A stretch of DNA of 64,000 bases from an uncultured Acidobacteriota bacterium (GCA_963792575.1 CAWBWZ010000001.1:125555-189554); one strand, 5' to 3'. Positions 14,006 through 62,950 are shown, counted from the stretch's first letter. Notes: a model not told the origin generated them from the letters alone. Made by a program: numbers and translations.

Positions 14006-14052
14006 AGGCCGTCAGCTTACTGGATGCCTGGAAGGGCCGCAACAATAAAAAG

Positions 14053-14082: not shown

Positions 14083-14238
14083 GGAGGAGAGGGAGCTGAA
14101 GGAGATTGTCGGAGTATTTGACTCCGGGACGGGTACAACTCCCGAACCCCGTCCCACCTCGTATAACCGGGGCGAGGTATGTGCGATTCCCATTTTCTCC
14201 AATATCTTGGATGCTCCCCCGTTCTCTAGAAACCTGCG

Positions 14239-41802: not shown

Positions 41803-42702
41803 ATGCGCTACCGCTACTACATTTGCGATGTCTTTACCGAGACCCGCTTCAGTGGCAATCAACTGGCCGTGCTGCCGGAGGCCCAGGGTCTTTCGGACCG
41901 GCGGATGCAGCAGATCGCCCGCGAGTTCAACTTCGCCGAGAGCACGTTCGTGCTGCCGGCGGAGGCCGGGCATACCCGCAGGGTTCGCATCTTCACCCCC
42001 ACCACCGAGGTTCCCTTTGCCGGGCATCCCAATATCGGCACCGCGTTCGTCCTGGCGGCCGCGGGCGAGTTCGGGCCGATCCTGCCATCGCTTACGGTGA
42101 CCTTCGAGGAGAAGGCGGGGCTCGTCCCGATCACCATCCAGCGACGCGAGGGGGGCCGCCTCTGGTGCGAACTGTCGGCGCCCCAGCGTCTTTCGCTGGG
42201 AAAGACCGTTTCCGCGCAGTCTCTGGCAAGGGCGGTTTCGCTCACTCCGGAGGATGTCGTCACTCGGACCCACCTACCCCAGGTGGCCTCGGTCGGCCTG
42301 CCGTTCCTGGTGGCGGAGCTCGCGGATCGCTCCGCTCTCGAACGAGCGCGCGTCAACATGGATGGGCTCGACGCCCTCGTCGCCGAAGGCGTGACCCCCG
42401 ACGTCCATCTGTATGTCCACAGTGCCGACGAGTTCGATCTTCGAGCCCGCATGTACGCACCTCTGGACGGGGTCCCGGAAGATCCCGCCACCGGCAGCGC
42501 GAACTGCGCCCTGGCCGGATTGCTCAGTCAGTGCGACGGGAGGACCGACGGCAGCTTCCGCTGGCGCATCGCCCAGGGGGTGGAGATGGGGCGTCCCAGC
42601 GTTCTGGAGGCGCGCACAGTGAAGAGAGAGGGAGCCGTCGTGGACATCCGGATCGGCGGGGCGAGCGTCCTCGTGAGCGAAGGTTTCATTGAGGTCGATT
42701 AG
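41803..42702 (+). CDS. PhzF-family isomerase-like protein
   Basis: MRYRYYICDVFTETRFSGNQLAVL ... EFNFAESTFV ... and a C-terminal GGASVLVSEGFIEV. Confidence 0.88.
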   Translation: MRYRYYICDVFTETRFSGNQLAVLPEAQGLSDRRMQQIAREFNFAESTFVLPAEAGHTRRVRIFTPTTEVPFAGHPNIGTAFVLAAAGEFGPILPSLTVTFEEKAGLVPITIQRREGGRLWCELSAPQRLSLGKTVSAQSLARAVSLTPEDVVTRTHLPQVASVGLPFLVAELADRSALERARVNMDGLDALVAEGVTPDVHLYVHSADEFDLRARMYAPLDGVPEDPATGSANCALAGLLSQCDGRTDGSFRWRIAQGVEMGRPSVLEARTVKREGAVVDIRIGGASVLVSEGFIEVD

Positions 42703-42745
42703 TCATTCGAAAGGAAAACAGGAGACCGAGAACGTGAAGAACGGA

Positions 42746-43747
42746 ATGCGCGCCATCGTCGTTCAGAAGCTGGGACCGCCCGAGGTCCTGGAGCTGAGCG
42801 AGGCGCCGGTGCCCCAGCCAGGCCCCGGGCAGGTGCTGGTGCGGCTTCATGCCGCGGGTGTGAACTTCTCGGACACCGAGCGGCGGCGGGGCATCTATCC
42901 CGCGTTCGATCTACCCTGGATCCCCGGCACGGAGGGGGCCGGCCGGGTTGTCGCGGCCGGCCCTGGCGTGGAGCCCACTTTGCTCGACCGGCGCGTGGCC
43001 TTCTGGGCGATGCCGCCGGCGGTGAGCGGCACCTACGCCGAGTACGCGGTAGCGCCGGCGAGCTCGCTGTTTCTCCTCGGACCGGACACGCCCTTCGACC
43101 TCGGAGCCGCCTTTCCGCAGCAAGGGCTGACAGCGTATGGTCTGACCTTCTTCGCGACCACGATCCACCCCGGCGCCACGGTCCTCATCCACGCGGCCGC
43201 GGGGGGCGTCGGCCAGATCCTGGTCCAACTCGTCCGCCGGCAGGGCGCCCGCGTTTTCGGGAGCGTGTCGAGCCCTGAGAAGGCCGACGCCGTGGCCGCC
43301 CTTGGCGCCGAGCCGCTCCTGTACGGGGAGGATCTGCCGGAGCGCGTCGCGGCGGCCACCGGCGGGCGCGGCGTGGATCGCGTCTTCGATTCGGTCGGCA
43401 AAGCGACGCAGGTCCAAAGTCTCGCGATGCTGGCTCCCCACGGCGAGCTCATCTTCTTCGGTGACGCGAGCGGTCCACCGGCGCCGATCGACCCGGACCA
43501 TCTCTACGGCCGAAGCCTCAAGATCGGCGCCTTCGGCCTGAACGTCGACCGTGATCCGGCGGCTTGGGCGGCGGCCCGCCGGCATCTCCTGGAGTGGATC
43601 GAAGCGGGGGAGCTGGCGATCTCGATCTCGCGGCGTTTCCCGCTTGAAAAGGCCGCGGAAGCGCACCGTCTACTCGAGAGCCGGGCCACGACCGGCAAGG
43701 TCGTCCTGATGCCGGCCGGCGCGGAAGAGCGGCGGCAGGGCACCTAA
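42746..43747 (+). CDS. qor: NADPH:quinone oxidoreductase (MDR superfamily)
   Basis: MRAIVVQKLGPPEVLEL..., GVNFSD, the cofactor motif HAAAGGVGQILVQL, and a C-terminal ATTGKVVL. Its last 156 nt (43592..43747) are copy 1 of the repeat family described below. Confidence 0.9.
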   Translation: MRAIVVQKLGPPEVLELSEAPVPQPGPGQVLVRLHAAGVNFSDTERRRGIYPAFDLPWIPGTEGAGRVVAAGPGVEPTLLDRRVAFWAMPPAVSGTYAEYAVAPASSLFLLGPDTPFDLGAAFPQQGLTAYGLTFFATTIHPGATVLIHAAAGGVGQILVQLVRRQGARVFGSVSSPEKADAVAALGAEPLLYGEDLPERVAAATGGRGVDRVFDSVGKATQVQSLAMLAPHGELIFFGDASGPPAPIDPDHLYGRSLKIGAFGLNVDRDPAAWAAARRHLLEWIEAGELAISISRRFPLEKAAEAHRLLESRATTGKVVLMPAGAEERRQGT

Positions 43748-43819
43748 TTGCGCCTCGAGGCTGGACAGGATCGCGGTCACCGACAGATTCGAATCCATGG
43801 CTCTTTCTCCAGGAAAAAC

Positions 43820-44125
43820 ATGCCGCGAGTCACCTCCAGGCGACTCGACAAAGGCTTTATTCGCGGCAAGTAAAGCCCAAAATGCCGCATAATGGCGCCA
43901 TTACGCGGAATAATAAGAAAATTATACCGCGAAATTGTTGGTCAATGCGGGAGATTTATGATTTTATGTCGCTTTATAGCTCTCCATTGCCGCGTAATTC
44001 TCATTTCGTGCTGCCTGTTGTCAGCAATGCGGCGCGACAAATCACTTTCATGGCGCCAAGTAAGGAAAATATACCGCATATTTCAGATTATACGCGGAGT
44101 AATTGGCGGTACACGCGGCATGACG
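43820..44125. repeat. AT-rich non-coding stretch packed with short CGCGG-core motifs (iteron- or arm-site-like)
   Basis: TTACGCGGAATAAT (43901), TATACGCGGAGTAAT (44089), TACACGCGGCAT (44110) and GAATTACGCGGCAA on the other strand (43987..44000). Also ATACCGCGAAAT (43924) / ATACCGCATATT (44071), and ATGGCGCCA twice (43892, 44050). Confidence 0.45.
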
Positions 44126-44347
44126 GCCTTCACGGCACCGGCGCGAGCCTGGCGCGCCTCCAGGCCGTGGCTCTGGGGTGAGCTTCGTGGCTCATGAACC
44201 TCGATGCCTTGATCGACCGCGGGTCCGTGAGCGGCGACGCGGAGCGCGCCAACAAGTATTTCTCTCTCTCAACGGGCTTTGCGACGTCCTCGGCGTCGAG
44301 CGCCCGCACCCGGAGAGGGTGCGAGAGGTGGAGAGGTACCGCTGAGA

Positions 44348-44529
44348 GAGGTGCCAGGCGCTTCGTCAGGGGGGAGTGGATTGAAGCGGGGGAGCTGGCG
44401 ATCTCGATCTCGCGTCGTTTCCCGCTCGAGGAGGCCGCGGAAGCGCACCGCCTGCTCGAGAGCCGGGCCTCGACCGGCAAGGTCGTTCTGTTGCCGGCCG
44501 GCGCGGAAGAGCGGCGTCAGGGCACCTGA
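44348..44529 (+). repeat. qor 3-prime-end pseudo-copy 2 with upstream GAGGTGCCAG motif
   Basis: 44374..44529 aligns base for base with 43592..43747, with about 12 mismatches over 156 nt. It still translates to EWIEAGELAISISRRFPLEEAAEAHRLLESRASTGKVVLLPAGAEERRQGT plus a stop. It is preceded by GAGGTGCCAGGCGCTTCGTCAGGG. Confidence 0.85.
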
Positions 44530-44672
44530 TAAGGGGTGGCCGGTTTCATGTCCGCTCCCGCGAGCCCCGGTCCAACATCCGGAGAGGAAAGAGTCATTAA
44601 CAAGAGCTTCGCCAGGAAGCTGACCGCGCGAACCGACGGTTCGGGCGTTCAGACTACAGTGAGACGGTCGGC

Positions 44673-45284
44673 TTACCCGTCCTCCTCATCCTTTGCGATA
44701 GTGAGGATCACCCGCAGTGTCGGAGCCTCACCCTCCCAAAGCGCGCTCCACTCTGAATCAGACAGGTCCCACTCCACTGAAGGCGCCTTCGAGTTCGACG
44801 TCCCGATGCCCAGGGCGTAGTTGCCCATCGCGTTGACGGCGGCCCCCTTCGTTGCGCCAAGCACGAGATCATCCCACTGCTGCCGGCGGACCTCTTTTCC
44901 CTTCGAGAGCAGGGCAACTGAGAGGGCTACGTGTTGGCGAATCCACTCCGTGCTCAGTGCCGTGGTGGCGGTGATTCTCTTTTTCCCTCGCCGATCCTCC
45001 AGCCGCAGGAGCACCACGCCGATCCTTGCCTTGTCACAGACGTATCCAGTGGCATCGTTGTAGGCTCGCGTCACCCCTGCAGGCGAGTCATTGAATGCCT
45101 TCCGCGGTTTCCCGTTAGGCGATGTGCCGGCCCCAAGCGGAATGTCCACTAGCATCGGGCTGGGTATCTCCCGCGAGTTCGTTGCGGTCGCCATGTCCTC
45201 AGGCGTTGCTTGTCGAACCTGAGGATAAAGCGGCCATGCCGACAGTGTCCCAAGGATGCATGCCTGCACAAGCATCTTGCGCAT
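44673..45284 (-). CDS. hypothetical secreted protein (cassette 2)
   Basis: ATG preceded by GAGGAGAGAAGG. Signal peptide MRKMLVQACILGTLSAWPLYPQ. No motif recognised. Lower GC. Confidence 0.55.
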   Translation of the reverse strand: MRKMLVQACILGTLSAWPLYPQVRQATPEDMATATNSREIPSPMLVDIPLGAGTSPNGKPRKAFNDSPAGVTRAYNDATGYVCDKARIGVVLLRLEDRRGKKRITATTALSTEWIRQHVALSVALLSKGKEVRRQQWDDLVLGATKGAAVNAMGNYALGIGTSNSKAPSVEWDLSDSEWSALWEGEAPTLRVILTIAKDEEDG

Positions 45285-45531
45285 ACCTTCTCTCCTCTGT
45301 TGAAGTGACACCTAATTTTCGCCCGGTTCGCTCCTCCCGTCCATCCGTCTCACTTCCGCCTGTCACAAAATTGTCTCCTCCCAACGCCTGACCCCGCCAT
45401 GGGGCGTGTCCTAACTCAATGTGGGCGGTGGCCGGGAGGACGGGTTGAGGTTCAGCAAAACTCGCTAACACTACAGTTGCACACGGTGTCGGTCCCACAA
45501 AAACTTGCAGTGAAAGGAGAGGGTGAAGGGA

Positions 45532-45687
45532 GAGGTGCCAGGCGCTTTGTCAGGGATCGAAGCGGGGGAGCTGGCGATCTCGATCTCGCGGCATTTCCCA
45601 CTCGAAGAGGTGGCGGAAGCGCACCGTCTGCTGGAGAGCCGGGCCTCGACCGGCAAGGTCGTCCTGATGATGCCGGCCGACGGCTGA
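45532..45687 (+). repeat. qor 3-prime-end pseudo-copy 3 with upstream GAGGTGCCAG motif
   Basis: GAGGTGCCAGGCGCTTTGTCAGGG is followed from 45556 by IEAGELAISISRHFPLEEVAEAHRLLESRASTGKVVLMMPADG plus a stop in the qor frame. Confidence 0.8.
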
Positions 45688-45816
45688 GACTGCGATAGAA
45701 TAGCCCTCACAAACGATGGCCAGAGGTTGTGGGTGTGCCGCACCGTCCCCGCAATGGATAGACGGCTGAGGGCCGCCTCCCGCCTGTGTGTTCGTCAAGG
45801 CCAGTCAGGGAGAACC

Positions 45817-46113
45817 ATGAGCTACTTTGTCCTCTTCGCCGTGGTCCTGGTCATCTGTTTCGGGATCAATCGAGCCAAGGGCCGGCCAGTCTCGAATCCA
45901 GGCTTTGTGGCTCTGATCGTCCTTGCCATCTTCCTCATAGTCGACCTCGGGTTCGGGGTCTACATGCTGGCTGGTACTCGCGTGGATCCCGAAATGCAAG
46001 GCAGGTTCATTGGCGGGATCATCGGCCGCGCGTTGATTCCGCTCATCCTTGCCACCTTGATCGGCAACAGCTTCCGCAAGAAGCACTCGATGCCGGTTCA
46101 GACTCTGGATTGA
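45817..46113 (+). CDS. small membrane protein, about three TM segments (cassette 3)
   Basis: AGGGAGAACC RBS. 98 aa: MSYFVLFAVVLVICFGI..., FVALIVLAIFLIVDLGFGVYML, IGGIIGRALIPLILATLIG. Confidence 0.6.
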   Translation: MSYFVLFAVVLVICFGINRAKGRPVSNPGFVALIVLAIFLIVDLGFGVYMLAGTRVDPEMQGRFIGGIIGRALIPLILATLIGNSFRKKHSMPVQTLD

Positions 46114-46165
46114 GAGAACGGCCGGTCACTTTCCGTCGTCCAGCGACAATACGAGGAGTCAGCTC

Positions 46166-47239
46166 GTGAAGAAATCGATGCTCTTTATCAGTCATATAGC
46201 CAAAGAAACGGACCTGGCCCAGTGCCTGAAGAAGTTTCTGGTCAACGACTTTCTAGGCATTCTCGAAGTGTTCGTTTCATCCGACGGAAAGACGATCCAG
46301 GCAGGAGAGCCGTGGCTGAACAAGCTGAGTGAGGCACTGGAAAGGGCGAAGTTCGAGATCGTCCTATGCAGCAAGGAATCCGTCGCGCGTCCCTGGGTCA
46401 ACTTCGAAGCCGGTGCCGGTTGGGTCCGCGGGATCCGGGTTATGCCCGTCTGTCATTCAGGGCTGATCCCGGACCATCTGCCGATGCCCCTGAACCTCCT
46501 TCAGGGGATCGAAGCTGGCCGCCCAGAAGGTCTGCAGCAACTCTACGAGGCGATTGCGGGACTGCTTGAGGTGCAAGTGCCAAGAGTTGATTTCAAGGCT
46601 ATGGCTCAAGAGGTTGAAGCTCTCGAGGAAAAATACCGCCTGTCAGGTCAGGACCTGGAGCGGATCGATAATCCTCGGATCCTCTGCGCGGCCAGTGAGC
46701 AGTACACCGATCACATGAAGTTCGATATGGATGTCGCGGTTTTAGAAGAGATATTCCCTGGGCAAGTCGTGGTAGAGCGTCGGTTGACGTCAGATCGCCT
46801 TCGTCGGTTACTGACAACTCAGACCTTTGAAGTCATTCACTTGGTACTGCCAATCGACCCCGAGAGCGGCGACCTTCTGTTCAGTCCAGTCGGTTCCGGA
46901 CACAAGCCGTCCACTCCCAAAGTCGACAAGATGTTGCCCGAATTTTTCGCCACGCTTCTGGTAGAGTCAGAGACCCGGTTGGTGGTCCTGGCCACCTGTT
47001 ATGCTTTGTACTTGGCCGTCGAAGTCGCGCGTATCGCGAACATGGTTGCTACCAAGGCCATAGTGAATGGCGAGCAGATGGCCGAATGGAGCGAATGCTT
47101 TTACGGCCTGCTCGCCGGAGGTTACTCCGTGTACAAGGCCTACGAGATCACGGAGTCCAATAGAAACTTGGTGCCGATGAAGCTACTGCGCCAGAAAGAC
47201 GTAGCCTTCTCATTCGCAGCAAAATCGACCGGCGAGTAG
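46166..47239 (+). CDS. TIR-domain protein with a C-terminal caspase/CHAT-like (His-Cys) domain
   Basis: GTG start 8 nt after GAGGAG. TIR hallmarks LFISHIAKETDLA..., VFVSSD..IQAGEPW, IVLCSKESVARPWVNFEAGAGW (candidate catalytic Glu). The C-terminus has FEVIHLVLP ... LVVLATCYAL ... FYGLLAGGYSVYKAYE. Confidence 0.75.
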   Translation: MKKSMLFISHIAKETDLAQCLKKFLVNDFLGILEVFVSSDGKTIQAGEPWLNKLSEALERAKFEIVLCSKESVARPWVNFEAGAGWVRGIRVMPVCHSGLIPDHLPMPLNLLQGIEAGRPEGLQQLYEAIAGLLEVQVPRVDFKAMAQEVEALEEKYRLSGQDLERIDNPRILCAASEQYTDHMKFDMDVAVLEEIFPGQVVVERRLTSDRLRRLLTTQTFEVIHLVLPIDPESGDLLFSPVGSGHKPSTPKVDKMLPEFFATLLVESETRLVVLATCYALYLAVEVARIANMVATKAIVNGEQMAEWSECFYGLLAGGYSVYKAYEITESNRNLVPMKLLRQKDVAFSFAAKSTGE

Positions 47240-47279
47240 TCTGGGCGGAGGACGCGGACGCGCACCGCCGGCAACGGGC

Positions 47280-47329
47280 GAGGTGCCAGTCCCTCTGTAG
47301 GGCGCGGGAGAGCGGCGGTAGAGCACCTA
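47280..47329 (+). repeat. qor 3-prime-end pseudo-copy 4 (internally deleted), distal island boundary
   Basis: GAGGTGCCAGTCCCTCTGTAGGG is followed directly by CGCGGGAGAGCGGCGGTAGAGCACCTA. The native end is CGCGGAAGAGCGGCGGCAGGGCACCTA. Confidence 0.7.
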
Positions 47330-47378
47330 TACCTTATGATGGCCGGCTTGACGCCGGCTGGCAACAAGGAGACCAACG

Positions 47379-47687
47379 ATGAAGAACTTTACGAAAGCCC
47401 TCGTCCTGCTCGCCCTCTTCGCCCTGGCCCTCTGCGCCCAGGGCATGGCTCAGACTCCGGCGGCGGCGCCCGTTCCCGCCAGCACCGCGGACTTCCTGGC
47501 GACCCTGTCAGGCGGCCAGGGCAACGTCACGAGCGATCTGCTTCCCAGCCCCATCTTCCTCTCGACACTCTGCGCCACCAACGCCGACTGCCCGACGGGG
47601 CAGCTCTGCTGCTACCCCTGCGGCATCGACGGCTGCAACCGGGTCTGCACGAAGCCGCTGCGCGGCCACTGCCCGCTGTATCCGTAG
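47379..47687 (+). CDS. small secreted Cys-rich protein with a WAP-like four-disulfide-core motif
   Basis: Signal MKNFTKALVLLALFALALCAQGMA. C-terminal CATNADCPTGQLCCYPCGIDGCNRVCTKP resembles C-x3-DCP-x3-xCC-x2-CG-x3-C-x3-C-x2-P of WAP domains. Confidence 0.6.
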   Translation: MKNFTKALVLLALFALALCAQGMAQTPAAAPVPASTADFLATLSGGQGNVTSDLLPSPIFLSTLCATNADCPTGQLCCYPCGIDGCNRVCTKPLRGHCPLYP

Positions 47688-47705
47688 AGGCCGGCCAGAT
47701 AGCAA

Positions 47706-47731
47706 AAGGGCGGGGATTCGTCCCCGCCCTT
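47706..47731 (-). terminator. intrinsic terminator of the leftward alpha-glucan locus
   Basis: AAGGGCGGGGA-ttcg-TCCCCGCCCTT (11-bp stem). The A-run on the plus side gives UUUUGCU after the stem on the minus strand. Confidence 0.7.
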
Positions 47732-47751
47732 CCCTCAGAACAGGAAACCCC

Positions 47752-48718
47752 CTACTTCTGATCCGCGGGCACGACTCCGGTGAGCTTCACCGGCTTTTTG
47801 GCGCGGGCGTCGAAGTCGGAGAGGACCTGTTCCTGGGTGCGGCCGCCCTTGGCCACGATGAGGTCGATCAGGGGCGGCTGGATGTCGGCGTTCTCGCGGC
47901 CGCCGCCGAAGCGGTCCTGCCAGCGGCCCGGGGAGACGGGGAGGATCATCAGACTCTTGTCGGCCGGATCGCGGCCCAGCTTGCGGGCGAGGTCGAAGGA
48001 CTGCAGCAGGTCGGCGCCGGTGGTGGCCACGGTGTAGGCCCAGGTGGATTTGGCCGGGCCGCCGAGGACGATGCCGGGCACGAAGAAGCTGATCTTCTGG
48101 CCGCGCACGTGGATCTGGGTGGGGAAGAAGATGCGCTCCTCGACGTCGACCGGGATCTGCTTCTTGAGCGAGTCGATCTCCGCGTCGGTGAGGCTGCTGC
48201 TCTTCTTGGCGTCCTCGTTGAGGGTCTTCAGGAGCAGCCGCTTGAGCTCGGCCTTGGCCTCGTTGGGCCGGGGCGTCAGGATGACCGCCTTCTCCCAGGC
48301 GGTCGACGGATCGACCTCGGCGTGGCGGCCGGGGAGCATGGTGAGGCCGCCGGAGCCCGCGACCCGGTCGGTGTCGATGTAGAGGTCGAGGTTCAGGTTG
48401 TAGAAGCCGAAGCGGGCGATCTTGTCGAGCTGGGTGCCGAGCTCGTCGATGGCCTCCCGGGCCGGGCGTCCGCACGGGGCGCGCGAAGGTGACCTCGAAC
48501 ATCGTGCCGTCGCCGTCCTCCCGGGCGGTCAGGGAGAGGATGTCGAGATCGCCGGGCTTCAGATCGTCGTTGTTGGGGTAGACGATCTTGCCGTCGCCAT
48601 GGTCGTCGCCCCGCGGGTCGGTGAGGGTGAAGATCTCCTTGCCGGCGCCGAAGGCGGGCGGAGCGATCAGGGAGGCGAGGAGGGTGGCGGTGAGCAGATG
48701 GGAACGGCTGAATCGCAT
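47752..48718 (-). pseudogene. secreted glucodextranase-C-terminal-like (DPxGDDxG...YP family) protein, one frameshift
   Basis: The N-terminus with signal peptide and TDPRGDDHGDGKIVYP is in track ORF 47735..48718. The rest (AIDELGTQL... to ...VVPADQK) is in the frame of ORF 47752..48339. The switch is near 48457. It is a paralog of 51069..51890. Confidence 0.7.
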
Positions 48719-48803
48719 TGTTTCTCCAAAAAGCGCGTCTCCAGGATATCCGATCCTAAAACGCGGGGGCGACCCCAGAGGGCCGCCCCCGCGAAGATTT
48801 CCT

Positions 48804-51034
48804 TCAGCCTTCTAGAACCGGACCTTCATGAACACCTTGAGGCGGTTCTGTTTGAAGTCCCGCTTGATCAGGCTGTTCCAGCCGCCGAAGCGGCCCTTGA
48901 AGCCGGGGGAGCCGACCGGCACGCCGTAGTCGCGGGCGATCCCGGCGTCGGCGTACTGGGTCACGAAGCCGCCGCCGAAGTCGGGGTCGAAGGTGCCCCA
49001 GTTGTACTCGTAGTTGGCGCCGAACTCGGCCCCGCCGAAGGTGTAGTGCGCGTAGAGGATCAGCTTGTTCTTGTCGTTCTGCCCTGACGCCATGCTGTGG
49101 AGCTGATAGGCCTGGAAGGCGGTGTTGCCGTCCTTCAGGTCGACGTTGTAGCGCTCGTAGGTCAGCGAGCTGTAGAGGTTGCCGGTGAGCTGGTAGCCGG
49201 CGCCGAGCTGGTAACAGCTTGTAGTCGAGGTCGCGGTCGTCGTCCGAGAGGCTGTCGAACGGCTTCCACTGGTAGCCGGTGACGCCGTTGACGGTGATCA
49301 CCGGCGGGTTGCCGTAGAGGTCGGCGGTGGAGTTGCCCGGCGCGTAGTAGTTCTGGGCGTGGTTGTGGCACGCCACGCCGCCGCCCGGGCAGTCGCCCGG
49401 CCTGGTAGGGCAGGAAGCGCGAATCGTTCATCCGCTTGTCGGTCTCGTCGATCAGCTTGATCTTGCCGAAGACGTCGACGCCCTTGCCGACGTTGAGCAG
49501 GTACTTGCCGCGCAGGATGGCGATGTCGGTCTTCTTGTCCTGGAACGGCGCGTAGGCGTTGCGGAAGGAGCCGACGCCGGCGTCGGACTCGAAGTTCGGG
49601 TAGATCGAATCGGTGATGCCGGCGGCTGGTGTCGCCCCAGGCCTGCCAGTTGGTGTTGTAGTCGATGTGGGAGTACTCGCCCGAGAGGTCGAGGTCGCCG
49701 ATCGTCCAGTTGGGAGCGACGGTGATGCCCTTCCAGCCGATGACGGTCTCGGCCATCGGCTCCTCGAAGTCGGTGAACTCGTTGTCGACGTTGATCGTCG
49801 CCACCTGCTGCGCCGGGCCCTCCCAGCCGCCGTAGCCGATGCGGGTGGGGTTGCCGGCGAAGACGCCGAAGGCGGAGTTGTCCGGGCCGGGGAAGACGAA
49901 GGCGCCGTCGTGCCCCTCGGTCAGCAGCACGTCCGACCTCGCGGCGGGCCGCCAGGATCGAGACTGTACTGGGCGCCGATGTTGAAGTACTCGACGTTGA
50001 AGGAGAGGCCGATGCCGAACGGATCGTTGAGGTCGACGTTGGCCTTGTAGAGCGGGTCGCTGACCTTGCCGGCCAGCGCCGGCGAGAAGCCCGACAGGCC
50101 GAAGCCGGTGGGGGTGCCGAACTTCGGGTTGGACTCGGCCTTCGAGTAGTAGTAGAGGCCGCGGAAGTCGAACTTCGAGCTCGGATGGATGCCGAACTTG
50201 CCGCCGTAGACGTCGTTCTTGAAGCGGGAATCGAGGCTGCGGCCATTGTCCACGCCGTTGTTGCCGGTGTCCTTGGCGCTGACCTCGACGTCGCGGACGC
50301 GATCGTAGATGCCGACGGCGTCGAAGAACGAGCTCGGCGTGAACTTGAGCTGCAGGCCGTAGGCGCCGTCCTGGCCGGCGTAGTCGCCGGTGTTGAAGTT
50401 CGGGCCGGCAAACAGGCGCGGCAGCGAGACGCGGATCAGGTCGTAGGTCAGCTGGCGGCTGCCCAGCGGCGCCCTGGAAGAGGATGGCCTTGGCGTTGTC
50501 GCGGTCGATGTAGCGGATCTTGCCGATCGTGAACGGATCGAACATGCCGAGGTCGGAGGAGCCGATGGTGGCGGCGTCCAGCCACTTGAAGCCCGGGGTG
50601 AAGCGGGCGGTCAGGCCGCGCATCTTGATGTATTCGTTGGAGCGCGGATCGAACTCGCCGCAGTCGCCGCCGACGCAATCGCCGCCCGGCGGGTTCTCCA
50701 GCGCCGGGTTGCGGCCGCCGAAGCCGGCGTAGTTGGTCCACTGGTTCTGGTTGAAGCGCGATTGCAGCCGGCCGGTCACCTCGATGTTCTTCGAGGGGTG
50801 GGAGGAGATCAGCAGATCGATCTCCGTGCCCTGGCCGTTGTCGCCGTACCCCTCGCCGGGGACGGTGGTGAAGTTGTAGACGCTGCCGTCGGTGTGCTGG
50901 TTGCCCCACAGCCACTTGGTGTAGTCCTCGCCGGTGATGATCATCGTCTGGCCGTCCACGGCGAGCGCCGGCATCGAAGCCAGCGCCGCCGCGGAGGCGA
51001 GCAGACCGATCGCAAAGCCCCTGGAAAATCTCAT
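48804..51034 (-). pseudogene. outer-membrane beta-barrel (porin-like) protein, about five frameshifts
   Basis: Signal MRFSRGFAIGLLASAAALASMPALA. Gly/Tyr/Asn/Asp-rich strand-like sequence. C-terminus ...NRLKVFMKVRF. Coding pieces lie in track ORFs 49298..51034, 49921..50253, 49162..49431, 48804..49376 and 48812..49093. Confidence 0.65.
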
Positions 51035-51068: not shown

Positions 51069-51890
51069 TTACTTCTTGGCGGAAACCATCTTGAGGGCGG
51101 CGCCCGACTTGCGCGTGCCGTCCGGGTTGCACTCGTACTTCAGCATGTCGTGCTGCATCTGGACCTCGTCGGCCGCGCCGGTGCCGTTGCCGGCCAGGAT
51201 GTCGATCACGTGCGGATCGCAATCGCTGTCGGTGCCGCCGCCGAAGCGGTGCTGGCCCTCATACTCGTTGACCTTGCGGGTGAGCAGGTCCTTGCCGTCG
51301 GGGAACCCCTCGTTGGACTGCACGAGGACCTGGTAGCCCCACTGCGAGGGGTCGCCGCCGCCGAGCTGGTCGAGGTCCACCGAGCCGGTGATCGTCCGGC
51401 CGGCGCCCTTGACGCGGGTCGGGATGACCACCGCTCCGCCCTGCGCCGCGGCCATCTTGGCGTCCACCTCGGACTTCACCTTGCCGGGCCCCTGCGGCGA
51501 AAGGATCACCATCTTGTTCCACTCATTGCCGTCGGCGAAGGTGACGTTGGTGCCCGGAGGGCCGTCCTTGAAGCCCCCCTCGGCGCCGGTGCGGATGGCG
51601 ATGAACACCATCTGCACCGAGAAGCCGCCGCCCATCCGCCAGGGGTCCTCGAGGGCGGTGTTGAAGGTGACGGCGAAGTCCACCTTCTTGCCGCTGACCT
51701 TGACGTCGAAGGCGGTCATGTCGAACGAGCCGCGCTTGTAGACGCCGTCGGTCGGGTAGGTGTAGCTGCCCGGACCGTTGTCGTCGTTGGCGGGATCCTT
51801 GAACGAAACGCCGCTCTGGGCGAGCGCGGAGCCGGCGATCAGCAGGCCGGCCGCGGCCGCGGCACCCATTTTCCAGAAATTCTTGGACAT
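51069..51890 (-). CDS. secreted glucodextranase-C-terminal-like carbohydrate-binding protein
   Basis: 273 aa at the end of the artefactual 1030-aa track ORF. AAGGAGG RBS. Signal MSKNFWKMGAAAAAGLLIAGSALA. Motif KDPANDDNGPGSYTYP. Confidence 0.75.
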   Translation of the reverse strand: MSKNFWKMGAAAAAGLLIAGSALAQSGVSFKDPANDDNGPGSYTYPTDGVYKRGSFDMTAFDVKVSGKKVDFAVTFNTALEDPWRMGGGFSVQMVFIAIRTGAEGGFKDGPPGTNVTFADGNEWNKMVILSPQGPGKVKSEVDAKMAAAQGGAVVIPTRVKGAGRTITGSVDLDQLGGGDPSQWGYQVLVQSNEGFPDGKDLLTRKVNEYEGQHRFGGGTDSDCDPHVIDILAGNGTGAADEVQMQHDMLKYECNPDGTRKSGAALKMVSAKK

Positions 51891-51916
51891 ACGTAGACCT
51901 CCTTGTTGGTGGGCCT

Positions 51917-52799
51917 TCAGCCCTTGACTGCGCCGGCCGTAAGACCGGAAACCAGATATTTTTGCAGGAACAGGAAGAGCGCCATCACCGGGATGGCGGC
52001 GATGATCGAGCCGGCCGCGAAGTACCCCCACTGCTGGGAGAAGCCGCCGACGAAGAAGCGCAGCCCCACCGGGGCCGTGTACATGTCCTCGCTGGTTCAT
52101 GAAGGTGGCGGCCTGGATGAACTCGTTCCAGCCGGTCATGAACGAGAACAGCGCGGTCACCGCCACGGCGGGCTTGGCCAGCGGCAGGATGATGCGGAAG
52201 AAGATCGTCGCCTGCGAGGCGCCGTCGATCAGCGCCGACTCCTCGAGCTCCTTGGGGATGGTGTCGAAATAACCTTTCATCATCCAGACGCAGAAGGGGA
52301 TCGCGGTCACCGTATAGATCAGCACCAGGCCGGTGAAAGTCGAGCCCAGCCCCAGCCACTGGACGATGATGATGTAGAGCGGGATCAGCATCAGGGTGCC
52401 GGGGAACATCTGCGACACCAGGAAGGCCATCAGCCCCGCCCGCCGGCCGGGGAAGCGGAAGCGCGAGAAGGCGTAGGCCGCGGTGCAGGCGAGGAAGACG
52501 CCGAGGACCGTCGTCAGCCCCGCCACCAGGACGCTGTTGAGCAGCCAGCGCCCGAACGGCTGGTCGGCGAACAGCGAGCGGAAGTTGTCGATCGACAGGT
52601 GCGAGGGCCAGGGGATGACGGCGCGCAGCCGGTCGATGGCGCCGGCGTTCGACGGCACGTCGGCGATCGCCAGGCTCTGTCCGCCGGAGAAGGCGATGGT
52701 CAGCACCCACAGAATCGGGTAGACGGTGATCAGCACCATGATCAGCACGAAGATGTGGAGCGGCCAGTGGGCCGGCTCGTCGCTGCGTCTCGATCTCAT
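51917..52799 (-). pseudogene. sugar ABC transporter permease (MalG-like), one frameshift
   Basis: EAA-loop region ELEESALIDGASQATIFFRIILPLAKPA. The frame breaks after ...ATFMNQ (about 52090) and resumes as DMYTAPVGLRFF...LTAGAVKG. The start overlaps the stop of the upstream permease gene (ATGA). Confidence 0.85.
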
Positions 52800-54161
52800 C
52801 CGATCGCCTCCGTCGCGCCGGTCACCCGGTTCTGCCAGGTGCCGTAGGCGAACAGGATCAGGAAAATGATGGCCGAGTAAGCGGCCGCGTAGCCGTAGCG
52901 GTACTGCTCGAACGCCAGCTTGTACGACTGCGTGATCAGGATCTCGGTCGAGTGCCCGGCGGTCGCCGGCGGAGACCAGATAGATCACGTTGAACTGATT
53001 GAAGGTCCAGATCACCGACAGGATGATCGCCGGCACCAGCGCGGGCTTGAGCGACGGCAGGGTGATCGAGCGGAACTGCTGCCAGCGCGTGGCGCCGTCC
53101 ACCCGCGCCGCCTCGTAGAGATCGGCCGGGATCGACTGCAGGGCGCCCAGCGAGATCACCATCATGAACGGGAAGGAGAGCCAGCCGTTGGTGGTCAGCA
53201 CCGCCAGGAACGAGGTGAACGGGTGATCGAACCAGGCGACCTCGGGGATTCCGGCGATCTGGAGGATCTGGTTGATCACGCCGAACTGCCGGTGGAACAT
53301 GCCCTTGAAGATCAGCGCCGTGATGTAGTTGGGCATCGCCCAGGGGAGGATCAGCAGCACCCGGTAGAGCGGCCGCAGGGCGAAACCCTTGAGATTCAGG
53401 GTCAGCGCCAGGGCGAGCCCGAGCGTGACGCCGATCGCCACGTTGGCCACCGTCCAGACGATGGTGAACAGCAGCGTGTAATAGAAATTCTGATAGTCCC
53501 AGGCGACCCCCGCCGCCGTGCGGTGCACGATGTGGAAGTCGCTGATGATGTCGAGGTAGTTCTGGAGCCCGACCCAGGTCTCGAAGATCGTCTTGTCGGT
53601 GTTGTAGATGTTGGCGTTGGTGAACGACAGGGCGATGCCGTAGAAGAACGGGAAGAAGACCAGGATCAGCATGCCGATCATCGCCGGCAGGACATAGGCG
53701 TAGGCTGTGCGGTACTCGACGAGGGCGGCGCCGGTGCGCGCCGCCCAGCCCAGCCCGACGAAGGCGAGCAGGACGAGCGAGAGCAGGGCGAGCAGGACCA
53801 CCGAGCGGGTCATCCGCCCGGCGTCGACCTGGACGAGCTCGCCGAGCTTCCCCTCGTCGAGAGCGCCGGAGGCGCCGATCAGCCCGCGCGACTGGCGGTA
53901 GAGGTCGACGTCCCAGAGCGTCGGCGCCAGCGGCTGGCCGGCGGGGATCGACTGCCGCGCCAGGAGCGCCTCCGCCTTCTTCGACTCCTCGCCGATCTGG
54001 GCGGCCACCGCCTGGGCCGAGACCCGGCGCTCGGCTTTCAGCACACTGACGGCGAAGCGTCCGTAGAAGAAGAGGGAGAGGATCAGCAGGAGGGCCGCGG
54101 CCGCCGCCAGCAGCCACCGCCGTTCACCGAGGACGAACGAGAGCAGGACCAGGGCGATCAC
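52796..54161 (-). pseudogene. sugar ABC transporter permease (MalF-like), frameshifted near its 3-prime end
   Basis: LYEAARVDGATRWQQFRSITLPSLKPA EAA loop. The frame breaks after ...FNVIYLVS (about 52960) and resumes as HSTEILITQSYKLAFEQYRYGYAAA... Confidence 0.85.
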
Positions 54162-54900
54162 CGGCGCCAGCCAGAAGCAGACGAATGGCAGAAAGATGAA
54201 GGTGGGGGGCTCGACGGGTAGCCCGGGTCTCCATCTGCACCATGCCGATCACCTCGCCGCCGCGCTCCACCGGCGCCCCCAGCGCGAGCACGCCGTCCGC
54301 CTGCCGCTCGAAGCCGAGCTCGGGCGCGCGGGCGGCTCCCTCGGCTCCCTGGCGGTTGCTCTCGACGTTGGCGCGCAGCTTCTGGCCGAGATCGTAGAGC
54401 GGCTTCTCGTCGCGCTCCAGCCGCCGCGGCGCCGCCTTGGCGCCCTGGTCGGCCGCGGAGGTCGAGGCGGCGAGCATGATGCCCTCGAATTCGACCACCC
54501 GGATGGCGGCCACTTCGGGGTGGTCGGCGGCGAAGCCTTCCACCGCCTTGCGGATGGCGCCAGCCTCGGCGTCGGTGGGCGCCTGGGCTTGCCCCTGCTC
54601 GGCCGCCGCGATCTCGGCCCCCAGCCCCATGCCGCCTTCGGCGGGCGTTTCAGCAGGAGCGGCCGGCGCCGCCTCCTGGACGCTGCCGCCGCTCGCCCGG
54701 TCGACGACGGCGGCGAGGGCGGAGAGAGTGACCAGGGCGCGGCGCTCGGCGCTCTCGCGGCGCTCGGCCGTCTGCGCTCCGGCGAGGAGCATCGCCCCGA
54801 GCCCCACCGCGAGCAGGGCGGCGAGGGCGAGGCCGATCAGGAACCGCCGCCGGTGCGAGGCGGGGCGAGCTTCACGCCGATCGGAGCTTTCACTGGCCAT
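54124..54900 (-). CDS. membrane-anchored hypothetical protein, possibly the N-terminal extension of the MalF-like permease
   Basis: One TM (FLIGLALAALLAVGLGAMLL), then an Ala/Glu-rich domain. It would join the permease frame by a 1-nt shift in the C-run near 54205. Confidence 0.4.
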   Translation of the reverse strand: MASESSDRREARPASHRRRFLIGLALAALLAVGLGAMLLAGAQTAERRESAERRALVTLSALAAVVDRASGGSVQEAAPAAPAETPAEGGMGLGAEIAAAEQGQAQAPTDAEAGAIRKAVEGFAADHPEVAAIRVVEFEGIMLAASTSAADQGAKAAPRRLERDEKPLYDLGQKLRANVESNRQGAEGAARAPELGFERQADGVLALGAPVERGGEVIGMVQMETRATRRAPHLHLSAIRLLLAGAGDRPGPALVRPR

Positions 54901-59120: not shown

Positions 59121-59209
59121 CCTCCCCCTCAGGGGGAGGTTAGGAGGGGGCCTCAACGTTCCGGACTCCGGAACGCCCCCTCCTGGCCTCCCCCGGTTCC
59201 CGGGGGAGG
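59121..59209. repeat. three consecutive GC-hairpins built on the same CCTCCCCC/GGGGGAGG arms
   Basis: H1 at 59121..59139 is CCTCCCCCT-ca-GGGGGAGG. H2 pairs 59142..59151 AGGAGGGGGC with 59175..59184 GCCCCCTCCT and encloses GTTCCGGA-ct-CCGGAAC. H3 at 59187..59209 is CCTCCCCCGG-ttc-CCGGGGGAGG. Confidence 0.55.
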
Positions 59210-59332
59210 AAAACAGCTGGCCAGCCGCTCATCGGGGGTGAAGGTGCGACACGGAACGTGTTACGTTCTCGGCAGACAAGGGCGGCGGGCGGACCCGCAG
59301 GCCCGCCATGGCTGGAAGGGAGGTCTATCTTC

Positions 59333-60366
59333 ATGCCCACCGGAATCGGTTTGATGGGATTGGGACGGATCGGGAGGAACATCTTCCGCATCCTTTATAA
59401 GAGCGACGATCTGCGGATCCAGGCGGTGAGCGACGTGGCGGACCCCGCGGCGCTCGCCTATCTGCTCCGCTTCGACACCCTCCTCGGGCGCTTCCCGGAC
59501 GAGGTGAGCATCCAGGACGGCGACCTCCAGGTCGCCGGCCGCCAGGTGAAGATGCTGACCGAGGCCAAGGGATCGCAGGACGTGCCCCCCTGGGGGGACC
59601 TGGGGGTCGACGTGGTCATCGAGGCGACCTCGAAATTCCGCACCCGCGCCGACGTGGAGCGCCACTTCGCGGCGGGGGCCAGGCGGGTGATCCTCTGCTC
59701 GCCGCCCGCCGAGGCGCCGGATCTCACCGTCGTCTTCGGCGTCAACGAGGACCAGCTCCGCCCCGAGCACCGGATCGTCTCCGCCAGCTCGGCGACCGCC
59801 ATCGCGGCCGGGCCGGTGCTCAAGGTGCTCGACGACGCCTTCGGCATCGAGCGGGCGTTCCTCACCACCGTTCACGCCTTCACCAACCAGCAGCGGCTGG
59901 CCGACGTGCCGCACGACGATCCGCGCCGGGGGCGGGCGGCGGGGGAGAACATCATCCCGCAGGAGACCCACGCGGCCGAGCTCCTCGCCGACCTCCTGCC
60001 CGGCCTCAAGGGGAAGATCACCGGCTACTCGATGAACGTGCCGGTCGCCAACGGCTCGGTGGTCGACCTCGTCTGCTGGCATCGGAAGCCGGTCACCGTC
60101 GAGACGGTCAACGAGGCGGTCCGCGCCGCCACCGCGGGGGACCGCCTGAAGGGCGTGCTGGACTACGAGACCGAGCCGATCGTCTCCTCCGACATCCTGC
60201 ACTCGGAGTACTCCGGCACCTACGACAGCCTCGCCACCATGGTGCTCGGCAAGAACGTCTCGAAGACCCTGACCTGGTTCGACAACGGCTGGGGCTACGC
60301 GCACCGGGTCGTGGACCTGCTCCGCCGCTTCGAGCAGCTCGATGGAGCCCAGAAGGGGAAAGCGCA

Positions 60367-60370
<4 letters not shown>
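59333..60370 (+). CDS. GAPDH-like paralog lacking the catalytic cysteine
   Basis: GGAAGGGAGG RBS. Rossmann GLMGLGRIGRN. The canonical [12 protein letters not shown] is replaced by SASSATAIAAGP, TGAAKA by THAAEL, and RVP by NVP. TTVHA is retained. The stop overlaps the start of gap (ATGA). Confidence 0.8.
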
Positions 60371-62552
<2,182 letters not shown>

Positions 62553-62553
62553 G

Positions 62554-62937
62554 CTACGCCCGCACCTCGCTCATCAGCGCCAGCGTGTTCCCCTCGGTAT
62601 CCCGGAAGAACGCCATCCAGAGCTCGTGGTCGGGCATGCGGGCGAGCAGGTGGGGCTCGCCGCGGAGATCGGCGCCGTGGTCGCTCAGCGATTTCCAGGT
62701 GGCCTGGATGTCGTCCACCTTGTAGTAGAGGATGGAGCCGGGGTGGTCGAACTCGGCCTCCTCGGGGAGGCTGAGCATCAGGCGGACGCCGCCGCAGTCG
62801 AAGAAGGCCAATTTGGGCGGAGCCTGGAAGAGGAACTTCATCCCCAGGACGTCGCGATAGAAGGCGACCGCCCGGTCGAGGTCGTGGACGACCACCGAGA
62901 TCTGGCCGATCCGGGAGAGGGAGAGGCCTGGCGCCAT
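62554..62937 (-). CDS. VOC (glyoxalase/bleomycin-resistance/dioxygenase) family protein
   Basis: 127 aa, with IGQISVVVHDLDRAVAFYRDVLGM ... and FFRDTEGNTLALM. Confidence 0.85.
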   Translation of the reverse strand: MAPGLSLSRIGQISVVVHDLDRAVAFYRDVLGMKFLFQAPPKLAFFDCGGVRLMLSLPEEAEFDHPGSILYYKVDDIQATWKSLSDHGADLRGEPHLLARMPDHELWMAFFRDTEGNTLALMSEVRA

Positions 62938-62950
62938 CAGGCCCTCAGTC

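Follow-up and report, generated by a model that had tools for sequence, protein, structure and literature searches.

Displaced qor 3′ ends and foreign cassettes in an array of an uncultured Thermoanaerobaculia bacterium

The qor locus and its array

The window, a 64-kb stretch of DNA from an uncultured Thermoanaerobaculia lineage (a soil Acidobacterium), carries an island of 3.55 kb with the order qor–A–copy 2–B–copy 3–C–copy 4, in which an intact quinone-oxidoreductase-like gene, preceded by phzF, is followed by cassettes of 0.6–1.6 kb that alternate with displaced copies of a qor 3′ end. Its GC content, 0.49–0.63 against 0.66–0.73 in the flanks, bears out the lower-GC island of the preliminary description. 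The features are:

42734–43747, plus strand: intact qor, quinone-oxidoreductase-like, MDR family, 337 aa
43591–43747, plus strand: copy 1, the qor 3′ end in current use and reference copy of repeat family D1
43748–44345, no strand assigned: cassette A, ~600 nt, AT-rich, GC about 0.49–0.51, without a credible ORF
44346–44371, plus strand: motif M, instance 1, GAGAGGTGCCAGGCGCTTCGTCAGGG, abutting qor −156
44373–44558, plus strand: copy 2, a displaced long-tail qor end, 156 nt plus ~28 nt of native-type intergenic sequence
44559–45529, minus strand: cassette B, a single minus-strand gene
45530–45555, plus strand: motif M, instance 2, one mismatch to instance 1, abutting qor −148
45554–45695, plus strand: copy 3, a displaced short-tail qor end (...MMPADG, stop at 45685–45687) with ~8 nt after the stop like L026-type qor
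45696–47246, plus strand: cassette C, a small membrane protein and a TIR-domain protein
47248–47329, plus strand: copy 4 remnant, comprising qor −99..−78 (47248–47269), a degenerate M (47278–47300) and qor −29 to the stop (47301–47329)
47379–47687, plus strand: native downstream neighbour, a secreted Cys-rich protein of 102 aa, marking the right edge of the insertion site

The qor product contains the Pfam domains ADH_N, ADH_zinc_N and ADH_zinc_N_2, and its best NCBIfam match, which lies under that model's cut-off, is to the PIG3/quinone reductase subfamily. The gene shares 88–91% nucleotide identity with its orthologues in three relatives (L002, L015 and L026) and is a recombination mosaic among these and the window: at alignment positions 421–480, the window and L015 agree at 58/60 sites, as do L002 and L026, whereas the window and L002 agree at just 50/60. 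Copy 1, the last 156 nt of the gene, is a long-tail allele (ending ...AGAEERRQGT before the stop); it is 94.9% identical to the native end of L002, as counted on the alignment, and 100% identical over the final 46 nt.

Cassette A contains two related ~72-nt units (43840–43911 and 44029–44100), each with a CCGCnTAnT...ACGCGG hairpin; its two ORFs of 99–101 aa gave no Pfam match, and the cassette no Rfam match. The gene of cassette B (44673–45284, minus strand) encodes 203 aa with a signal-peptide-like N-terminus and was assigned to no known family in Pfam, PADLOC and NCBIfam scans. Cassette C encodes the small membrane protein (45817–46113, 98 aa) and the TIR-domain protein (46166–47239, 357 aa), the latter with matches to Pfam TIR_2 (1e-9), PADLOC TIR-TM (5e-8) and ThsB-like proteins; this is the cassette with a TIR defence-type gene. 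Homologues were found for cassette C (n=714), many of them from soil metagenomes.

The displaced copies largely agree with their first description. The last 156 nt of qor indeed recur in copy 2, where the frame is open, runs to its own TGA stop and matches Pfam ADH_zinc_N_2; its alignment to copy 1 is gapless, with about 92–92.8% identity, and comprises 11 substitutions in 153 coding nt (8 synonymous, 3 non-synonymous) plus a TAA>TGA change. Nucleotides 44373–44556 are 93.5% identical to L002 10858–11041, a match that continues 28 nt past the stop. Copy 3 has the extra ATG codon, separate stop and different tail previously attributed to it; this tail is the ordinary short tail of qor in other lineages, L026 and L003–L009 among them, and the copy is 87% identical to the intact L026 qor end (5972–6110). 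The fourth copy, placed earlier at 47303–47329, is a remnant as proposed, but its extent had been underestimated. Nucleotides 47301–47329 correspond to the final 29 nt of qor at 90% identity, and 47248–47269 match qor −99..−78 with 2 mismatches, a 22-mer pattern found in the window at the four copies alone (0.01 expected). Because this upstream block matches qor, the motif at copy 4 lies inside a pseudo-qor. Downstream, a native spacer of 50 nt leads to the gene at 47379, with 47301–47751 collinear with L002 10985–11444 and L015 10987–11441; the same structure is present in L026, where M is better preserved. Copy 4 represents the oldest qor end, still in its native context.

The displaced ends are ADH_zinc_N_2 C-termini that differ at 3–5 residues. 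Each copy is a formerly working qor end, which is supported by the mostly synonymous substitutions and by the coexistence in a single array of a short-tail allele (copy 3) with alleles of the long-tail type found in L002 and L015 (copies 1 and 2). The array is not the assembly artefact that the preliminary description had allowed for: the Logan contigs L032 (44384–45567) and L001 (45565–48902), from independent short-read assembly, tile it and break inside a 32-nt exact repeat core, and L026 carries B–pseudo-qor–C–copy 4.

Occupied and empty sites in relatives

As had been proposed, related genomes were compared for an empty site or for different cassettes, and both were found. In L002 and L015 the site is empty, with qor followed by ~50 nt and then the gene at 47379, and qor is single-copy in these empty-site relatives. 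In L026, a different strain, the order is qor–phzF–acyltransferase–B–pseudo-qor–C–copy 4. Cassettes B (95.5% identical to L026 8395–9181) and C (91% nucleotide identity) are common to the window and L026, whereas A and copy 2 occur in the window alone, cassette A being absent from L026, L002 and L015. This distribution fits an order in which newcomers displace the previous end. In L026, copy 3 is represented by a qor pseudogene of 320 nt with an internal deletion, which lacks the motif and is joined at about −537, and in L014 a displaced copy consists of a 60-nt mid-gene piece (98% identity) fused to the 3′ end (90%). Displaced copies thus decay by deletion, as seen in L014, L026 and copy 4.

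Six further genes in related genomes show this recombinase-free architecture: phzF (a 5′ end of 634 nt), an sbcC-like gene (three copies), an ABC-F gene, the gene at 47379, a Glucodextran_C gene and the qor of a Holophagales genome. Cargo in these analogous islands includes CHAT and toxin-like genes. No recombinase was found in the six islands examined (L004, L005, L009 and L015 among them), and an IS1-like fragment in the L002 island is the sole trace of mobility. A donor genome with qor–A, qor(+28)–B or short-tail-qor–C was not found.

Within the window, no integrase, recombinase or transposase domain was detected in the island ORFs (Pfam, PADLOC and NCBIfam) and no mobility domain in 30 other ORFs (Pfam), in agreement with the earlier reading of island and flanks. 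The scan covered ~90% of the 64-kb window of a multi-megabase genome, that is, all but four ORFs near the window end and a few short gaps. A reverse transcriptase domain was likewise absent from the scanned ORFs. A diversity-generating retroelement was considered and rejected, since the repeats differ by every kind of substitution (C>T, G>T, T>C, A>G, A>T) rather than by adenine-specific changes and no reverse transcriptase was found in the scanned ORFs.

Origin of the copies and of their joins

Across eight pairs of intact and displaced ends, 30, 25 and 102 differences fall at codon positions 1, 2 and 3, respectively, and 101 are synonymous and 56 non-synonymous; the phzF fragment (633 nt) has 61 differences, 45 synonymous and 16 non-synonymous, and no indel. 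With 102 of the 157 differences at third positions, the copies are diverged alleles that came with the cassettes. An alternative is that the qor end was duplicated locally in tandem, by replication slippage or template switching, and that the copies then decayed neutrally while unrelated DNA was inserted between them. The repeats are direct and tandem, as such an origin would have it, and displaced copies do decay by deletion. The third-position share, however, is 0.65, against an estimated 0.46–0.53 expected for the decay of dead copies; structurally unlike allele types share one array; the inserts are foreign and of lower GC; and copies 1 and 2 resemble each other (92.8%) no more than each resembles L002 (94.9%). 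We regard local duplication as highly improbable.

Motif M is a 23-nt sequence that precedes copies 2, 3 and 4, as had been noted. The motif sequence GAGGTGCCAG occurs three times in the 64 kb, all at these sites, against 0.25 expected, and a 24-mer of the motif occurs twice in the window against 0.00 expected; short degenerate GAGAGGTG repeats lie upstream. The right edge of M is constant, and it is joined to qor at three positions, −156, −148 and −29; with the upstream block of copy 4 included, the boundaries between cassettes and qor extend to −99 as well. The preliminary description had suggested that M might be a diverged continuation of qor. This was discarded: the join at copy 3 is shifted by 8 nt relative to copy 2, which places M in another reading frame, its similarity to qor does not exceed that of shuffled sequence, and M is present as well at two island edges, in L002 and L026, that are not at qor. 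The left ends of the cassettes hold nothing conserved, and their left edges lie at +0, +28 and about +10 after the qor stop.

Such a motif invites a site-specific explanation, in which an integrase acting in trans would have integrated the units in tandem, as non-autonomous integrative elements like CIME, pseudo-SCC or satellites. The attP would then consist of M plus a replacement qor end, with the previous end pushed aside by crossover where M meets qor. Supply of a replacement gene end by the incoming element is the classic mark left at icd by e14 or phage 21, and arrays of recombinase-less units beside a gene 3′ end have precedents in SCC composite islands and in ICE/CIME accretion. Each unit at qor does supply a replacement end, the conserved M and its degenerate repeats stand at each right end with a constant edge, M reappears at the two other island edges in close relatives, and empty sites and cassette polymorphism exist. 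The rest of the evidence is harder to accommodate: no recombinase was found in the scanned ORFs of the window or in the six analogous islands, qor is joined at three positions with differing left edges, and the cassettes lack a conserved left-end sequence. In L026, B is joined without M to the pseudo-qor with its ~320 nt of internally deleted qor; the six other genes show the same architecture without M, including the 634-nt duplication of a 5′ end; and M was found in just one further species among metagenome contigs and in no viral contig. M leaves limited room for a site-specific system, and an integrase in trans seems to us unlikely, with a small but real chance of being correct. The original proposal of repeated site-specific integration therefore survives in part: the serial displacement of gene ends is upheld by the alleles and the L026 order, but its site-specific character is not, as joins and edges vary.

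The preliminary description had also likened the layout to an integron-like or satellite-like array. In that case M, alone or with the qor repeat, would behave as an attC-like site for an integron-type integrase encoded at a distance, and the array would count as an integrase-less attC cluster. Such clusters reportedly exist (Cury et al. 2016) and would require no integrase nearby, the cassettes measure 0.6–1.6 kb, and the element between them is repeated in direct orientation. Yet six folds of single-stranded M plus repeat, on both strands, gave z-scores of −0.49 to +0.56, no better than shuffled sequence, and the one minus-strand segment of copy 3 with a z-score of −2.08 is a local hairpin rather than the two-end pairing of an attC site. 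Direct reading of the borders revealed no R′′/R′ boxes (RYYYAAC/GTTRRRY), and the repeats are clearly coding sequence, the end of a gene that is single-copy at empty sites. Cassette B lies on the opposite strand and cassette A lacks an ORF; phzF is upstream, and no IntI integrase was detected in the scanned ORFs of the window. Together with the variable boundaries and the long, internally deleted pseudo-qors in relatives, these observations largely refute an integron-like platform, to which we attach very little credence.

With slightly better than even confidence, we propose instead that foreign DNA was acquired at the qor end in successive homology-anchored steps, for which a dedicated recombinase is unnecessary. 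An incoming piece from a related lineage would bring that lineage's qor 3′ allele together with a downstream stretch, the future cassette. One side would be resolved by ordinary homologous recombination within qor. For the other there would be two routes: an illegitimate join within the resident qor end, at GG microhomologies of 2–3 nt, or a further homologous crossover that uses a pseudo-qor arm displaced earlier. The same product would also result if a circularised piece entered by one (Campbell-type) crossover. The outcome is what the locus displays, an intact qor with the newcomer's end and a 5′-truncated resident end pushed downstream. Repeated rounds would yield qor–A–copy 2–B–copy 3–C–copy 4, with the displaced ends later decaying by deletion. 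The recombination steps themselves, and the route by which the DNA entered, we infer.

Homology-facilitated illegitimate recombination has reportedly given mostly deletions, not duplications, in published experiments (de Vries and Wackernagel 2002). The presence of M at all three cassette/pseudo-qor joins also counts against a recombinase-free origin, since it is not predicted by pure illegitimate joining. Possibly, the junctions spread by descent: an existing qor–cassette–pseudo-qor unit would have both flanks homologous to a naive qor, so that RecA alone could suffice to transfer it to a genome with an empty site or to add it to an array already present, carrying the M|pseudo-qor junction along. 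Descent from a single junction explains the M copies of the window but not the sites in L002 and L026.

Comparison with described systems

Islands that depend on integrases (e14/phage 21 in icd; SCCmec composite islands at rlmH; ICESt/CIME accretion at fda; dusA-specific integrases, PMC4482086; tycheposons) resemble the qor array in supplying a replacement gene end and leaving a pseudo-end at the far border, in forming tandem arrays that may hold recombinase-less units, and in having empty sites in relatives. In them, however, the crossover core is fixed and one unit or more encodes a recombinase, a gene that was not found here in the scanned parts of the window or in the analogous islands. 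In contrast to theirs, the borders of the present array vary, displaced copies can exceed 500 nt and carry internal deletions, and many unrelated genes are affected.

A closer parallel is insertion with long target duplication (Nobusato et al. 2000; Furuta, Abe and Kobayashi 2010, PMC2853133), in which a block of <20 kb without integrase or transposase lies between long direct repeats that often overlap a gene 3′ end and align to the single-copy sequence of an empty-site genome, here the qor end of L002 and L015. The direct repeats reported by Furuta et al. 2010 (PMC2853133) measure 46–423 bp, and their cases lack mobility genes and come mostly from naturally competent species; the repeats at qor span 29–186 nt, and up to 634 nt in relatives. 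As in that study, repeats of >30 bp correspond to one empty-site sequence, no mobility gene is found and the block is below 20 kb. The cargo is of a defence type in both cases, restriction-modification there and TIR, CHAT and toxin-like genes here. The qor array differs in its three nested events at one site, as against single insertions, in its conserved junction motif M and in its uncultured Thermoanaerobaculia host. Moreover, the left and right repeats of Furuta et al. 2010 (PMC2853133) are up to 98.6% alike and nearer each other than to the empty site, whereas duplication of the recipient target is not seen here, given the 92.8% between copies 1 and 2 against 94.9% from each to L002. The present repeats are 75–93% alike with mainly synonymous differences, which identifies them as alleles from other lineages, not copies made at insertion.

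The layout itself is that of C-terminal displacement arrays at rhs, cdiA and T6SS effector–immunity loci (Jackson 2009; Poole 2011; Koskiniemi 2014; Kirchberger 2017, PMC5361080), where an intact gene is followed by orphaned 3′ fragments that each keep a conserved stretch of the gene, and newcomers settle beside the gene, moving older ends further away. These arrays do without an integrase; homologous and homology-facilitated illegitimate recombination have been proposed, the latter by Kirchberger et al. 2017 (PMC5361080) for displaced effector ends. At qor, too, 5′-truncated copies of the 3′ end lie in the same orientation, with the newer nearer the gene. In those arrays the variable part is a toxic C-terminus with its immunity gene, and selection keeps the old immunity genes; here there is no toxin tip or immunity gene, as the displaced ends belong to a metabolic enzyme and are near-synonymous alleles, and the cargo has no relation to qor. 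The arrangement at qor is, in sum, of an already described kind.

Displaced qor ends and the history of the array

The quinone-oxidoreductase-like gene qor, whose best NCBIfam matches are PIG3/NADPH:quinone reductase subfamilies, is followed by three recurrences of its final 156 nt, placed much as the preliminary description had reported. These displaced ends (copies 2–4, copy 1 being the end in use) delimit three inserts, cassettes A, B and C:

42734–43747, plus strand: qor, product of 337 aa (domains ADH_N, ADH_zinc_N, ADH_zinc_N_2)
43748–44345: cassette A, AT-rich, with no credible gene and two related ~72-nt units, a hairpin in each
from 44373: copy 2, 92% identity, ungapped, with its own TGA stop
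between copies 2 and 3: cassette B, one gene on the minus strand, whose 203-aa product looks secreted and belongs to no known family
from 45554: copy 3, with one extra ATG codon, a different tail and its own stop
between copies 3 and 4: cassette C, with genes for a membrane protein (98 aa) and a TIR-domain protein (357 aa)
47301–47329: copy 4, the last 29 nt of qor, 90% identity

Copy 2 carries 11 substitutions per 153 coding nt, 8 of the 11 synonymous, and its match to the native sequence extends 28 nt past the stop. The tail of copy 3 (...PADG*) is the usual short tail of qor in other lineages, including the related contig L026. A further fragment at 47248–47269, directly upstream of the third occurrence of the junction motif M, equals qor positions -99 to -78 (counted from the end of the gene) with two mismatches; as a 22-mer pattern it matches only the four copies in 64 kb (0.01 expected). 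No other repeat of the gene-end type was found in the window, where the sole other long direct repeat comprises two tandem paralogous genes (59144–61412; ~71–74% nucleotide identity, 1030-nt spacing), perhaps for glyceraldehyde-3-phosphate dehydrogenase, judging from the repeat sequence.

The island has a GC content of 0.49–0.63, compared with 0.66–0.73 in the flanks. The units of cassette A (43840–43911 and 44029–44100), spaced by 189 nt within 600 nt of AT-rich, non-coding sequence, each form a strong hairpin (ATGCCGCATAATGGC/GCCATTACGCGGAAT; CCGCATATTTCAGATTATACGCGG followed by a T-rich run on the minus strand); they may represent two small RNAs or two sites for protein binding, and have no Rfam match. 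Searches for known RNA families and tRNA/tmRNA targets found none, and comparison of the island with plasmids and phages gave nothing meaningful. The TIR-domain protein of cassette C weakly matches TIR-type anti-phage components and has 714 homologues, mostly from soil metagenomes.

The array is not an assembly artefact, a concern raised at the outset: an independent short-read assembly (run ERR11596053) tiles it with two contigs equal to window 44384–45567 and 45565–48902, and another strain (L026) carries part of it. Both contigs end within a 32-nt stretch identical in three copies, the behaviour of a k-mer assembler at a true repeat. Exact-protein look-ups for further strains returned only contigs of this run.

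The organism is placed in Thermoanaerobaculia, Acidobacteriota, and its relatives reveal how the locus was built. In contigs L002 and L015, whose qor is 91% identical to that of the window at the protein level, the homologue of the gene at 47379 follows qor after ~50 nt. Because the window is collinear with this native arrangement from 47301 on, the 3.55 kb at 43748–47300 is an insertion, and copy 4 is the oldest qor end, retained in its native context. L026 (88–95% nucleotide identity) has the order short-tail qor–phzF–acyltransferase–B–pseudo-qor–C–copy 4–downstream gene; B, C and copy 4 therefore predate the split between the two strains. Only the window lineage has cassette A and copy 2, and L026 differs in what adjoins qor, a pattern that fits addition next to qor. 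Relatives thus supply both the empty site and the cassette polymorphism for which the preliminary description had proposed to look.

Gene order also varies on the other side of qor. phzF lies directly upstream of qor in the window (41806–43747) and directly downstream in L026 (5099–7056) and in contig L004 (10001–16552), and L002 has a dienelactone hydrolase gene upstream of qor and no phzF; the left flank is therefore a rearrangement breakpoint as well. Downstream of the island, a Glucodextran_C-domain gene (47752–48718, minus strand; 321 aa, intact in the independent contig L001) is split into two frames in the window by one extra C in a CCGGGCC run at 48462, probably an assembly indel. The long ORFs at 48812–51034 and 51072–54248 likewise seem to be frame-broken or fused. 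At the window start (483–3560) lies a gene for a restriction-modification enzyme of type ISP (N6_Mtase and Type_ISP_C domains).

Recurrence of the layout and allelic nature of the repeats

Related genomes share a common layout, in which an intact gene is followed by an island and then by a 100–640-nt copy of the gene's end at 87–95% identity:

L004: phzF, first 634 nt copied (a 5' end case)
L005: sbcC-like gene, three copies
L009: ABC-F gene
L015: homologue of the gene at 47379
L026: Glucodextran_C gene

In a Holophagales genome (L014), qor and a 0.77-kb cassette precede a composite displaced copy, in which 60 nt from mid-gene (98%) are fused to the final 140 nt (90%). The L026 counterpart of copy 3 is likewise a composite, a 320-nt pseudogene without motif M in which a mid-gene piece (window 43222–43270) is fused to 43461–end. 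These internally deleted structures in L014 and L026 indicate that displaced copies began long and shrink by deletion. Cargo of the analogous islands includes CHAT-TPR, TIR, peptidase S58 and DUF2000 proteins; no recombinase was found in them, the L002 island holding only an IS1-like fragment.

Individual loci add detail. L005 (12772–20284) holds a second multi-copy array, in which three copies of the last 160–290 nt of a gene for an sbcC/Rad50-like ATPase, 90–95% identical, bracket two cassettes: one of 6 kb with a CHAT-TPR protein and one of 0.67 kb with a single ORF whose predicted C-terminus looks like that of a RelE/ParE-type toxin. In L015 (11441–13467), a 2-kb insert separates a Cys-rich gene from a displaced copy of its last 130 nt plus terminator; the insert encodes a 377-aa Cys-rich secreted protein and an unknown ORF, the latter followed at 12171–12200 by 30 nt from the very start of the qor coding sequence (window 42733–42762, 97% identity), a displaced qor 5' end far from qor. 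The L002 island (11458–14607; also in L025) begins 13 nt past the Glucodextran_C stop position, opens with motif M and contains a small ORF resembling ribbon-helix-helix proteins and another whose 358-aa product weakly matches an IS1 transposase; the contig ends inside the island. In L026 (11530–12594), two copies of a 178-nt segment, made up of the terminator and the final 115 nt of the Glucodextran_C gene, enclose a 0.7-kb insert that opens with M and carries, on the minus strand, a gene for a small Cys-rich secreted peptide resembling the window 47379 gene. A search with the 52-aa qor C-terminus for orphan qor ends gave only five short matches, on tiny contigs. One of the five, on a metagenome contig from an unrelated sample (L030, 1209–1388), is a genuine orphan and thus a further displaced qor end: a 59-aa qor C-terminal ORF lies mid-contig with no qor sequence upstream, in surroundings too limited to give usable context. 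The pattern appears common in Thermoanaerobaculia, at least eight cases having been found across ~0.5 Mb of related loci, and integrase-based island finders would miss such islands.

Across eight intact/displaced pairs, differences number 30, 25 and 102 at codon positions 1, 2 and 3 (101 synonymous, 56 non-synonymous), and the 633-nt phzF fragment has 61 differences without an indel, 45 synonymous versus 16 non-synonymous. The observed third-position share of 0.65 compares with an estimated 0.46–0.53 for a copy dead from duplication onward. Copies 1 and 2 (92.8% identical) are no closer to each other than each is to L002 (94.9%, counted on the alignment); long-tail and short-tail allele types of the qor C-terminal end occur together in one array; and qor itself is a mosaic among four lineages. 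Together, these observations indicate that the repeated ends diverged as working ends in different genomes and arrived with the cassettes. The 'duplicated target' is a second allele travelling with cargo, which points to homology-anchored capture.

Proposed routes of insertion and the junction motif

We infer the following route. Incoming DNA would consist of the 3' part of a relative's qor plus whatever followed it. One side would be fixed by homologous recombination within qor, and the other either where the resident end offers a short microhomology (GG at each of the three joins) or through an already displaced pseudo-qor as second homology arm; the same product would result if a circularised piece entered by one crossover. 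The gene would stay intact and the resident end be displaced, in either polarity, repeatably and with no dedicated enzyme. Both arms of a qor–cassette–pseudo-qor unit would be homologous to a naive qor, so that RecA alone could suffice for its spread. A cassette between two copies of one gene end would bring its own homology arms, and this would offer defence-type genes (TIR, CHAT, toxin-like) a simple way to spread without mobile-element machinery.

The preliminary description had inferred repeated insertion with replacement of the gene end, which holds, and had attributed it to an attachment site in an integron-like array, which finds no support. In agreement with what it had noted for the island and flanks, scans of the island ORFs and 30 other ORFs with coding-type GC3, covering ~90% of the window (all but four ORFs at 59144–62982 and a few short gaps), revealed no integrase, recombinase or transposase domain. 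Border positions vary: cassette left edges fall at +0, +28 and ~+10 after the respective stops, and M joins qor at three different positions. Six of seven single-strand folds of inter-cassette segments were no better than shuffles as attC-like structures (z -0.49 to +0.56); the seventh, the copy 3 minus-strand segment (z -2.08), is a local hairpin. Given also the displaced copies that lack M and the recurrence at other genes, a site-specific or integron-like system is unlikely. A diversity-generating retroelement was rejected, the substitutions not being adenine-specific and the scanned ORFs having shown no reverse transcriptase domain.

Motif M (GAGGTGCCAGGCGCTTNGTCAGG, 23 nt) is the main reason for keeping enzyme-based readings in view. 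It precedes copies 2–4, as originally described: GAGGTGCCAG occurs three times in the window, each time at one of these sites (0.25 expected), and a 24-mer of the M region occurs twice (none expected). Its right edge is invariant across all three qor joins, at -156, -148 and -29; ~45 nt upstream of the join are common to copies 2 and 3, and short degenerate GAGAGGTG repeats lie upstream of M. The suggestion that M is a diverged continuation of qor fails, since local alignment is no better than shuffles (290/300 scoring at least as high) and the reading frame differs between copies 2 and 3; no qor homology was found upstream of M in either copy. M as a genome-wide repeat was likewise rejected: in the window it is confined to the island. 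As a Chi-like over-represented word it was rejected too, since across 225 kb of related sequence none of its 7- or 8-mers shows enrichment or strand skew, and it matches no known RNA and no viral sequence.

Among the contigs compared, M is found only in the window, L002 (with L025, of the same species) and L026; a metagenome search gave one match, from the L002 species. Both L002 and L026 have M at island edges that adjoin the Glucodextran_C gene, not qor, and a pseudo-qor remnant after M is not significant in either (86/500 and 267/500 shuffles scoring at least as high). At the analogous junctions, those of L004, L005, L009, L014, L015 and L030, neither M nor any shared motif was found. Descent of a single M|pseudo-qor junction, carried as homology arm, explains the window copies of M; it does not account for the L002 and L026 sites. 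Mainly for this reason, we leave a small but appreciable probability to a recombinase acting in trans, and a slighter chance to M being the candidate recognition or cleavage site of an undescribed recombinase or nuclease encoded elsewhere. With such an enzyme, excision and insertion would carry a replacement gene end along with each mini-cassette, giving a platform that docks at the end of ordinary protein genes, more than one of them (qor and the Glucodextran_C gene) in this lineage. The conserved motif is a concrete loose end that can be tested.

Relation to described systems

Cases of 'insertion with long target duplication' have been on record since 2000 with no mechanism to account for them. 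Furuta, Abe and Kobayashi (PMC2853133) described restriction-modification units between direct repeats of 46–423 bp, both of which match a single sequence in a genome with the empty site, with no mobility genes, mostly in naturally competent species and by an unknown mechanism. Kirchberger et al. (PMC5361080) described type VI secretion clusters whose effector ends were displaced one after another, and invoked homology-facilitated illegitimate recombination, as earlier proposed for orphan rhs and cdiA ends. The qor array has the features that define the former class and the same layout as the latter clusters. It is a clear polymorphic, multi-step example, from a little-studied phylum, of a described class lacking a settled mechanism, with empty sites and an intermediate strain. 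In contrast to both systems, it comprises three steps at a metabolic gene, a conserved motif marks its junctions, and its repeats are demonstrably alleles, not copies made in place.
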